This document shows positions 12,318 through 23,760 of a stretch of DNA of 51,465 nt, one piece after another (positions within the stretch are counted from its first letter, which is position 1; each line of letters begins with the position of its first letter). The translations under genes were made by a program, and so were the position numbers. Under the pieces are notes generated by a model. That model did not search any database. It was not told the origin of the DNA and worked only from the letters and a program-made list of their open reading frames with translations. This stretch comes from a virus (taxonomy: Duplodnaviria > Heunggongvirae > Uroviricota > Caudoviricetes). The stretch lies in the IMG/VR virus record IMGVR_UViG_2872152978_000009, one strand, 5' to 3'.

Positions 12318-12517
12318 CGACTTTTACCAGAGAGCAGTTAATAGCTCACGCAGAGGAGACTATTGAAGCACAGAGACTGTGCATACCGGGCACAATCGAC
12401 CATGACATCATCCGCACATATAAGATTAGACTGGCCCCCTGAATCTCCAGACAACCAGTATCACTTAAATAAGTGATAGTCTTAATACTAGTTTTTAGAC
12501 TAGTCATTGGAGTACAG

Positions 12518-12883
12518 ATGATTGATGTCTTAGGGCCGGAGAAACGCAGACGGCGTACCACACAGGAAAAGATCGCAATTGTTCAGCAGAGCTTTGAACC
12601 GGGGATGACGGTCTCCCTCGTTGCCCGGCAACATGGTGTAGCAGCCAGCCAGTTATTTCTCTGGCGTAAGCAATACCAGGAAGGAAGTCTTACTGCTGTG
12701 GCCGCCGGAGAACAGGTTGTTCCTGCCTCTGAACTTGCTGCCGCCATGAAGCAGATTAAAGAACTCCAGCGCCTGCTCGGCAAGAAAACGATGGAAAATG
12801 AACTCCTCAAAGAAGCCGTTGAATATGGACGGGCAAAAAAGTGGATAGCGCACGCGCCCTTATTGCCCGGGGATGGGGAGTAA
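12518..12883 (+). CDS. insC: IS2 transposase OrfA (InsC)
   Basis: 121-aa product [18 protein letters not shown]... recalled as IS2 InsC. Confidence 0.9.
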
Positions 12884-13746
12884 GCTTAGTCAGCCGTTGT
12901 CTCCGGGTGTCGCGTGCGCAGTTGCACGTCATTCTCAGACGAACCGATGACTGGATGGATGGCCGCCGCAGTCGTCACACTGATGATACGGATGTGCTTC
13001 TCCGTATACACCATGTTATCGGAGAGCTGCCCACGTATGGTTATCGTCGGGTATGGGCGCTGCTTCGCAGACAGGCAGAACTTGATGGTATGCCTGCGAT
13101 CAATGCCAAACGTGTTTACCGGATCATGCGCCAGAATGCGCTGTTGCTTGAGCGAAAACCTGCTGTACCGCCATCGAAACGGGCACATACAGGCAGAGTG
13201 GCCGTGAAAGAAAGCAATCAGCGATGGTGCTCTGACGGGTTCGAGTTCTGCTGTGATAACGGAGAGAGACTGCGTGTCACGTTCGCGCTGGACTGCTGTG
13301 ATCGTGAGGCACTGCACTGGGCGGTGACTACCGGCGGCTTCAACAGTGAAACAGTACAGGACGTCATGCTGGGAGCGGTGGAACGCCGCTTCGGCAACGA
13401 TCTTCCGTCGTCTCCAGTGGAGTGGCTGACGGATAATGGTTCATGCTACCGGGCTAATGAAACACGCCAGTTCGCCCGGATGTTGGGACTTGAACCGAAG
13501 AACACGGCGGTGCGGAGTCCGGAGAGTAACGGAATAGCAGAGAGCTTCGTGAAAACGATAAAGCGTGACTACATCAGTATCATGCCCAAACCAGACGGGT
13601 TAACGGCAGCAAAGAACCTTGCAGAGGCGTTCGAGCATTATAACGAATGGCATCCGCATAGTGCGCTGGGTTATCGCTCGCCACGGGAATATCTGCGGCA
13701 GCGGGCTTGTAATGGGTTAAGTGATAACAGATGTCTGGAAATATAG
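12841..13746 (+). CDS. insD: IS2 transposase OrfB (InsD)
   Basis: 301-aa product recalled as IS2 InsD; overlaps insC in -1 frame. Confidence 0.9.
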
Positions 13747-13990
13747 GGGCAAATCCAAAGATGGATATTGCTGTTCTGGAAATCGCACTGGTATCGCTGG
13801 CAGCAGAGCCAGCCGGTAAATTGCATGAATACAAACCAGTGGGATATCAGCGTCTGGTCGATGAGTTAACCATGCTGGTAAAGCAGTTAACCTGGCAACT
13901 GAGGAAAGCGAAGCCAGACTGCAAATTACCGGATAAGGCGATGAGTTATCTGGAGCGGAACGGACTGATAAGCGTGGAGGATATTTTACG

Positions 13991-14074
13991 ATGACCTGGC
14001 CTGAAGCATTAACAACGGTAGGAATTGCGATGGCGGTGGCGCTGGTGGTGTATTCGATTTGCCGCTGGGGATAA
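13991..14074 (+). CDS. Tiny hydrophobic peptide (27 aa)
   Basis: ATGA-overlapped ORF MTWPEALTTVGIAMAVALVVYSICRWG; speculative. Confidence 0.2.
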   Translation: MTWPEALTTVGIAMAVALVVYSICRWG

Positions 14075-22274: not shown

Positions 22275-22420
22275 AAAGTGAGCCAGTCAAATGGAAGGTA
22301 TCGTTAAACTCACCGGTAGTGTCAGTGGGTAGACTGGCCCCCTGAATCTCCAGACAACCAGTATCACTTAAATAAGTGATAGTCTTAATACTAGTTTTTA
22401 GACTAGTCATTGGAGTACAG

Positions 22421-22786
22421 ATGATTGATGTCTTAGGGCCGGAGAAACGCAGACGGCGTACCACACAGGAAAAGATCGCAATTGTTCAGCAGAGCTTTGA
22501 ACCGGGGATGACGGTCTCCCTCGTTGCCCGGCAACATGGTGTAGCAGCCAGCCAGTTATTTCTCTGGCGTAAGCAATACCAGGAAGGAAGTCTTACTGCT
22601 GTGGCCGCCGGAGAACAGGTTGTTCCTGCCTCTGAACTTGCTGCCGCCATGAAGCAGATTAAAGAACTCCAGCGCCTGCTCGGCAAGAAAACGATGGAAA
22701 ATGAACTCCTCAAAGAAGCCGTTGAATATGGACGGGCAAAAAAGTGGATAGCGCACGCGCCCTTATTGCCCGGGGATGGGGAGTAA
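22421..22786 (+). CDS. insC: IS2 transposase OrfA (InsC)
   Basis: Identical protein to copy 1. Confidence 0.9.
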
Positions 22787-23649
22787 GCTTAGTCAGCCGT
22801 TGTCTCCGGGTGTCGCGTGCGCAGTTGCACGTCATTCTCAGACGAACCGATGACTGGATGGATGGCCGCCGCAGTCGTCACACTGATGATACGGATGTGC
22901 TTCTCCGTATACACCATGTTATCGGAGAGCTGCCCACGTATGGTTATCGTCGGGTATGGGCGCTGCTTCGCAGACAGGCAGAACTTGATGGTATGCCTGC
23001 GATCAATGCCAAACGTGTTTACCGGATCATGCGCCAGAATGCGCTGTTGCTTGAGCGAAAACCTGCTGTACCGCCATCGAAACGGGCACATACAGGCAGA
23101 GTGGCCGTGAAAGAAAGCAATCAGCGATGGTGCTCTGACGGGTTCGAGTTCTGCTGTGATAACGGAGAGAGACTGCGTGTCACGTTCGCGCTGGACTGCT
23201 GTGATCGTGAGGCACTGCACTGGGCGGTGACTACCGGCGGCTTCAACAGTGAAACAGTACAGGACGTCATGCTGGGAGCGGTGGAACGCCGCTTCGGCAA
23301 CGATCTTCCGTCGTCTCCAGTGGAGTGGCTGACGGATAATGGTTCATGCTACCGGGCTAATGAAACACGCCAGTTCGCCCGGATGTTGGGACTTGAACCG
23401 AAGAACACGGCGGTGCGGAGTCCGGAGAGTAACGGAATAGCAGAGAGCTTCGTGAAAACGATAAAGCGTGACTACATCAGTATCATGCCCAAACCAGACG
23501 GGTTAACGGCAGCAAAGAACCTTGCAGAGGCGTTCGAGCATTATAACGAATGGCATCCGCATAGTGCGCTGGGTTATCGCTCGCCACGGGAATATCTGCG
23601 GCAGCGGGCTTGTAATGGGTTAAGTGATAACAGATGTCTGGAAATATAG
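22744..23649 (+). CDS. insD: IS2 transposase OrfB (InsD)
   Basis: Identical protein to copy 1. Confidence 0.9.
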
Positions 23650-23760
23650 GGGCAAATCCAGTGGGTCGTCTGAGATGCCTGCATGAGTTATCAGAGCCAT
23701 CAGTACTTAACTGGTGGCTTTTTTTATTGTTGTCAGCTTCCGGATAACGGGAGACGGGGT

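Follow-up and report, generated by a model that had tools for sequence, protein, structure and literature searches.

The stretch of DNA analysed here (IMG/VR virus record IMGVR_UViG_2872152978_000009; 51,465 nucleotides, hereafter the window) is a lambda-like prophage that carries two identical copies of the insertion sequence (IS) IS2 in direct orientation, one on either side of an 8.6-kb block of genes. Based on comparisons with IS-free and singly inserted relatives, the two copies are very probably separate simple insertions of canonical IS2 in one prophage. The initial annotation had likewise proposed that they arrived independently rather than as parts of a composite transposon, and this proposal is upheld by the separate target duplications of the two copies, the intact empty sites found in other genomes, the existence of relatives that have only the first copy, and a differently placed second copy in the assembly PSST01.

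The two IS2 copies and their target duplications

Copy 1 occupies positions 12427-13757 and copy 2 positions 22330-23660, both on the plus strand and thus oriented along the rightward and late transcription of the phage. As reported in the initial annotation, they are identical direct repeats: each is 1331 bp long, and a direct comparison found 0 mismatches between them. A repeat search returned a single long direct repeat family (starts at 12427 and 22330), and the match between the copies stops precisely at the element ends, extending by 0 bases to either side. Two identical sequences of 1.3 kb cannot be a matter of chance. Outside these boundaries the flanks are specific to each copy, and the 5-bp target duplications previously assigned to them are intact at both sides, AAGAT for copy 1 (left 12422-12426, right 13758-13762) and GTGGG for copy 2 (left 22325-22329, right 23661-23665).

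Each copy has two overlapping open reading frames (ORFs) on the plus strand, viz., orfA or insC, which encodes 121 aa (12518-12883 in copy 1 and 22421-22786 in copy 2), and orfB or insD, which encodes 301 aa (12841-13746 and 22744-23649, respectively). Because the DNA is identical, the InsC and InsD proteins are also the same in both copies, as had been noted. The HTH_Tnp_1 domain of orfA and the HTH_21, rve and rve_3 domains of orfB all score over the Pfam cut-offs. An A6G motif for -1 frameshifting at IS position 409 (12835-12841 in copy 1 and 22738-22744 in copy 2) fuses the two frames into a reconstructed OrfAB transposase of 409 aa, which is the length of the RefSeq proteins named 'IS3-like element IS2 family transposase, programmed frameshift'. 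The terminal repeats, a left repeat (IRL) of 42 bp that begins TAGACTGG (12427-12468 in copy 1) and a right repeat (IRR) of 41 bp that begins TGGATTTG on the bottom strand (13717-13757 in copy 1), pair at ~30 of 41 positions with one gap. The geometry and sequences of these ends, which start with TAG in the IRL and with TGGATT on the bottom strand of the IRR, agree with those described for IS2 (PMC3299598).

E. coli records with a full-length match at 99.3-99.8% identity number in the thousands, and the matched features bear the annotation 'IS3-like element IS2 family transposase'; the IS2 of E. coli Ec-2844, for example, is 99.775% identical to that of the window, with 3 differences. Other IS2 insertions in the relatives are also bordered by 5-bp duplications (TACAC, GTTTC, TCGAC and ATTTG). 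Thus, the element is IS2 itself, a member of the IS3 family, and not a relative of IS2. It resembles the IS2 of Escherichia coli K-12 and Shigella (IS2 group; insC, insD and insCD) in its length, IRL and IRR, A6G fusion, domains and 5-bp duplications, and differs from the reference IS2 by a few single-nucleotide polymorphisms (SNPs) only, without any structural difference. Its structure and behaviour lie entirely within known IS2 biology, and it is no new kind of element. Since the ORFs and ends of both copies are intact, transposition activity of these copies is plausible, and the new site-specific insertions seen in sister strains show IS2 to be active in this lineage.

Empty sites and insertion states in related genomes

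For a search against 5,426 complete E. coli genomes, the empty target sites were rebuilt as 2-kb reconstructions, from which IS2 and one copy of its duplication had been removed. At site 1, IS-free E. coli prophages align with the reconstruction in one unbroken piece that spans the junction, with a coverage of 88-89% and an identity of 99.4-99.7%, and a coverage of at least 80% is reached in 160 records. The site-2 reconstruction is likewise matched in a single piece, with a coverage of 100% and an identity of up to 99.8%, and is covered to at least 80% by more than 1,000 records. In those E. coli genomes the stretch from the nin region to the lysis genes is collinear with that of the window and free of any IS2, with 98% identity to the window over the interior and its flanks. 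Both insertions together were found in none of the 5,426 complete E. coli genomes.

Closer relatives were identified through exact-protein look-ups, which yielded about a dozen related Shigella-type assemblies. Positions 13981-34325 of the window are byte-identical to GenBank CP026840.1, whose accession series also includes the sister entry CP026832, from Shigella dysenteriae 14 ATCC 49346 (PMC10132075). Both sites are filled in CP026840 (the window), UYIT01, CP026832, CP026828 and CP176669, and site 2 is filled in CP026807, CP045784, CP026823 and CP026842, where site 1 lies beyond the fetched DNA. Site 1 is filled and site 2 empty in LPSX01 and PSSQ01. PSST01 shares this state and has another IS2, with the duplication TACAC, 135 bp further on inside the holin gene. 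Nine informative SNPs set the two site-2-empty long assemblies apart from the rest, a pattern that fits copy 2 having been gained once, with copy 1 already in place. Only the patterns at informative sites were used here; SNP distances, which mostly reflect patches of recombination in the head genes, were dropped as a guide to phylogeny.

From these states we suggest that copy 1 (AAGAT), which is common to every related assembly that could be checked at site 1, was inserted first, and that a sub-lineage later acquired copy 2 (GTGGG). Each copy would have arrived by the normal IS2 route, in which the right end attacks beside the left end to give a figure-of-eight and then a minicircle, and the minicircle inserts through a 5-bp staggered cut that leaves the target duplication. 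Nothing in the data contradicts this insertion history as such. The order of events is open to one objection, namely that the direction of change at site 2, gain or precise loss, hangs on a rooting of the tree that is not proven. If PSSQ01, PSST01 and LPSX01 had lost copy 2 by precise excision, the two insertions would be equally old. The window has a 466-bp deletion allele and 7 informative SNPs in common with PSSQ01 and PSST01, and therefore the tree permits either rooting. However, excision so precise as to leave a single GTGGG is a rare event, site 2 is empty in all E. coli relatives, a gain needs a change on one branch only, and the separate IS2 acquired by PSST01 135 bp away shows that insertions are ongoing. 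We thus regard the loss of copy 2 as improbable and favour its later gain.

A further explanation, that one of the copies or their perfect identity is an artefact of assembly or polishing, draws on the PacBio-era origin of the source assembly, on indel errors that have frameshifted genes in two sister assemblies, and on an odd partial IS2 that adjoins a full IS2 in PSST01. The initial annotation had also allowed that resequencing might reveal a single collapsed IS2 or differing flanks. All four junctions, however, recur in several independent assemblies, those of site 1 also in short-read contigs that end in or near IS2, and copy 2 of CP026807 is identical to the IS2 of the window, which makes an artefact very unlikely. 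The partial element of PSST01 (the IS2 sequences of its PSST01000003.1 locus are at 8304-10027 and 18736-20066 of that locus) stands at site 1 and comprises bases 1-394 of IS2 directly adjoining the full copy; it stems either from misassembly or from an aberrant or tandem transposition event.

A composite transposon that was inserted whole, with Q, the tRNA genes and the esterase gene as its cargo, might be considered given that identical IS copies in direct orientation flank a block of genes and that the ends of two different IS3-family copies can in principle be joined, but it is almost certainly the wrong description, as the outer flanks differ (AAGAT to the left of the unit, GTGGG to its right, and each IS2 with its own duplication), the interior is present and collinear with both flanks at 98% identity in IS-free prophages, and intermediates with copy 1 only exist (LPSX01 and PSSQ01). 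Neither a common outer duplication nor a cargo that is absent from element-free relatives was found.

Genes and spacers hit by the insertions

Copy 1 lies within a 114-aa ORF of the nin region (12314-13994, plus strand), which belongs to phrog_660 (function unknown), has no Pfam match, and is continuous in IS-free E. coli prophages. The insertion interrupts it after codon 37. The 5' stub runs into IS2 and encodes 42 aa (12314-12442), and the 3' part is left as 13761-13994 or as an 87-aa ORF that begins in the right end of IS2 at 13731. Copy 1 thus would inactivate a small nin-region gene.

The same gene has been hit independently in E. coli NCTC86 (2502-3832 of a locus from NZ_LR217818.1), where a 97.4%-identical IS2-like element with the duplication TCGAC is located 27 bp upstream of site 1 (window ~12399). 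This element is present in three NCTC86 assemblies (LR217818, LT601384 and OZ489144) and absent from two more (CP019778 and CP117959), which shows stock-to-stock variation in this strain. At the left junction of copy 1 itself (window 12426-12427; ~8696 in the loci of the three assemblies), UYIT01, CP026832 and CP176669 are without one T, and read AAGA|TAGACTGG in place of AAGAT|TAGACTGG. The missing T lengthens the stub ORF from 42 to 53 aa, and the same three assemblies carry the 744G>A allele of copy 1. The variant is a lineage marker.

Copy 2 is inserted in a 150-bp spacer between the stop of the esterase gene (22274) and the start of the class II holin gene (23761-23976, plus strand), just upstream of a terminator-like hairpin (23693-23721). 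It puts 1.3 kb of foreign DNA between an upstream block, formed by Q, the late promoter and the esterase gene, and the genes for holin, lysis, head and tail that follow.

Hybrid promoters that point outward from the right ends of IS2 were considered for both junctions and rejected; a scan gave no promoter-like site at either of them, and the -10 hexamers are poor by eye. An apparent orientation bias, in which all IS2 matches in this prophage family run along phage transcription, was set aside because the ranking of places by BLAST favours same-strand pieces.

The segment between the two copies

The region enclosed by the two IS2 copies and their inner duplications (13763-22324) contains the genes listed for it in the initial annotation, namely hok, the DUF968/HNH gene, rusA, the Q-like gene, the methylase gene, the tRNA genes and the NanS-p-like esterase gene, all of which are recovered by Pfam, ARAGORN or Rfam. 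From left to right, it comprises sok/hok (14116-14441; Rfam and Pfam), rem (14658-14909; Rem in Pfam), a 92-aa ORF between rem and the next gene, a DUF968 gene with a weak HNHc_6 match (15256-16302), rusA (16315-16689; RusA), the Q antiterminator gene (16686-17507; PF03589), a tR'-like terminator (17590-17605), a DNA methylase gene (18082-19140; N6_N4 methylase), two tRNA genes (19181-19256 and 19264-19340; ARAGORN), a DUF3927 mini-ORF (19430-19540), an STnc100-like element (19606-19797; Rfam, 130 bits), a minus-strand iraM-like gene of 111 aa (19823-20158), and a gene for a SASA/NanS-p-type esterase with DUF1737, SASA and DUF6645 domains (20418-22274).

This order, i.e., Q, methylase, tRNAs, the stx slot, nanS-p/yjhS and lysis, is that of the late regions of Shiga toxin (Stx)-converting and other lambdoid phages. 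Parts of the segment are 87-93% identical in nucleotide sequence to Stx2a phages, mEp460 and vB_EcoS phages, and integration at ompW is also known among such prophages; no phage record covers at least 80% of the interior segment. Unlike the Stx phages, the window has no stx, and its slot holds the DUF3927 mini-ORF, the STnc100-like element and the iraM-like gene. Judged by gene order and by collinearity in relatives, these 8.6 kb make up a late-regulatory module that is native to the phage rather than imported cargo. The earlier description of the segment as accessory-rich is fair for several of its genes and leaves out that it also holds Q and the late promoter and terminator region. In the stx slot, for which the initial annotation gave one unknown ORF, these three features are present instead.

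The 111-aa gene in the slot deserves mention as a candidate prophage-borne stabiliser of RpoS that sits where Stx phages carry their toxin genes. Its RefSeq orthologues are named anti-adapter IraM, whereas precomputed contig tables name it PmrD; a direct Pfam scan gave no match, and in PHROGs it matches only phrog_4407, of unknown function. The tRNA gene at 19181-19256 is called tRNA-Met (CAT) by ARAGORN, and its RefSeq orthologue in related prophages is tRNA-Ile, in which the CAT is presumably lysidine-modified. In the STnc100 region (window 19594-19797), most relatives are 466 bp longer, as they have this ~198-bp element in two copies. The window, in common with PSSQ01 and PSST01, thus has a repeat-mediated deletion allele at this place.

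Recombination between the copies

Deletion or circle formation between direct repeats is a general expectation, and the two 1.3-kb copies are potential substrates for homologous recombination, as the initial annotation had pointed out. A crossover is predicted to delete 9,903 bp including Q and to leave one IS2 with AAGAT on its left and GTGGG on its right. As both Q and the late promoter and terminator region are inside the segment, its deletion would therefore disable lytic growth. No such variant, described in the initial annotation as lacking 13758-23660, turned up among the genomes and assemblies covered here. A query that joins the left flank of copy 1, one IS2 and the right flank of copy 2 found no deletion product in the 5,426 complete E. 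coli genomes, where the only places that cover at least 80% of it are the IS2-like insertion of NCTC86 and an unrelated IS2 near a holin gene. The junction was also not found in the dozen or so related Shigella-type assemblies, complete Shigella genomes not having been searched exhaustively. Exact-protein look-ups gave no record for the 37-aa fusion ORF at the right junction of site 2, and gave 10 contexts for the DUF1327 protein just downstream, none of them deleted.

Orthologous IS2 copies in sister strains differ at few positions. One of the variants, 744G>A, is carried by copy 1 in three strains, two of which have it in copy 2 as well. The shared allele hints at gene conversion among IS2 copies, i.e., at recombination without deletion, albeit in a small sample.

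Consequences for the prophage

We infer that the two IS2 copies most likely ground or cripple an otherwise intact prophage. Apart from the proposed polarity of copy 2 on the late genes, the two copies raise the length of the prophage from ~49.3 kb to ~52 kb. Its head genes belong to the lambda-type Pfam families Nu1, GpA, gpW, portal_2, S49, gpD and gpE, and at ~52 kb it would exceed the ~51-kb packaging ceiling of lambda-type capsids. Several points weigh against so strong an effect. Late expression may survive copy 2 if Q-modified polymerase reads through IS2; the packaging limit comes from work on lambda and is extrapolated to this prophage; and all large phage ORFs of the window look intact apart from the IS2 copies. 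The prophage might thus still be partly functional, and the polarity, the packaging effect and the outcome of recombination are put forward as expected rather than observed effects.

Classical IS2 insertions in the early operons of lambda are polar, and their polarity is relieved by antitermination. The copies of the window would resemble these in lying inside antiterminated phage operons along the direction of transcription. They can also be compared with the IS-driven decay of Shigella prophages and genomes, in that several IS elements have entered a non-essential prophage at sites that vary between strains; unlike in the general decay of Shigella, the other prophage ORFs are intact, and the IS2-IS2 deletion is seen in no assembly examined. 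IS2 belongs to a set of five insertion sequences (IS1, IS2, IS4, IS600 and IS911) whose expansion is common to all Shigella species (Hawkey et al. 2020, PMC7373316). Taken in this setting, the double insertion represents the usual decay of a prophage in a lineage rich in IS elements and belongs to known biology.

A more adaptive role is conceivable and, in our estimate, has little chance of being correct. Copy 2 could act as a 'lysis lock' that domesticates the prophage, with iraM, the tRNAs, nanS-p, hok/sok and DicB/DicF kept for the host, or IS2 transposase could mobilise an 11.2-kb circle, in which the IRR of copy 2 is joined to the IRL of copy 1, and so move the module of Q, tRNAs, iraM and esterase. 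The persistence of the double-IS2 state in several serologically distinct strains and the signs of gene conversion point in this direction. Gene conversion would mean that recombination occurs without deletions being fixed. We prefer the plain reading of gradual decay, for which the lineage offers a stepwise example, from no IS2 through one to two, while sister strains have second hits elsewhere or deleted arms. The insertion states could be used as markers for strain typing, and the window gives a caution for predictors of prophage intactness, as it looks 'complete' and yet has an interrupted late operon and is probably over packaging size. Beyond annotation the finding is of little importance, and it opens no new mechanism or long-standing question.

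Other features of the prophage and its relatives

The prophage follows the canonical lambdoid order, as established from the Pfam families of genes in loci that are identical or nearly so to the window: integrase and Xis, DicB/DicF, a CI/Cro-type switch, replication genes, the nin region, Q and lysis genes are followed by lambda-type terminase, head, tail, J and tail-fibre genes. Its boundaries lie at ompW and trpA. The integration site in the Shigella-type chromosome is the 3' end of ompW, and a duplicate of the ompW 3' end (attR) is located ~316-440 bp past the end of the window, followed by IS1 and then trpA. The small RNA DicF (4540-4591, minus strand; Rfam) lies beside a dicB-like gene. 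Both DicF and the sok RNA of the hok locus (14116-14291; Rfam) are standard cargo of Qin/Rac-type prophages.

Among the relatives, CP026828.1 (4465-8600 and 17154-17851 of its locus) has lost its left arm; the loss takes in most of the integrase gene, most of the nin region and everything in between, and the remainder adjoins an IS with an rve_2 domain. A third IS2 is found next to ompW, an IS1 has entered between iraM and the esterase gene, and decay proceeds by routes other than IS2-IS2 recombination. Over window positions 24000-34325, the SNPs of the relatives gather in the genes for terminase, portal and capsid, in patches of 1 kb that contain as many as 84 SNPs in UYIT01, which indicates recombination with other lambdoid prophages.

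Towards the right end of the window, the gene for the 993-aa tail fibre contains three tandem units of 132 bp (47948-48343), the second and third being 77% and 62% identical to the first, which encode a repeated protein motif. Further on, two fragments of a tail-fibre-assembly gene (49956-50152 and 51005-51200; 86-95% identical), one of which overlaps an Rfam match to IS009, flank a gene for a class I S-adenosylmethionine (SAM) methyltransferase (50187-50855, minus strand), which looks like a cargo gene inserted at the end of the tail-fibre region.

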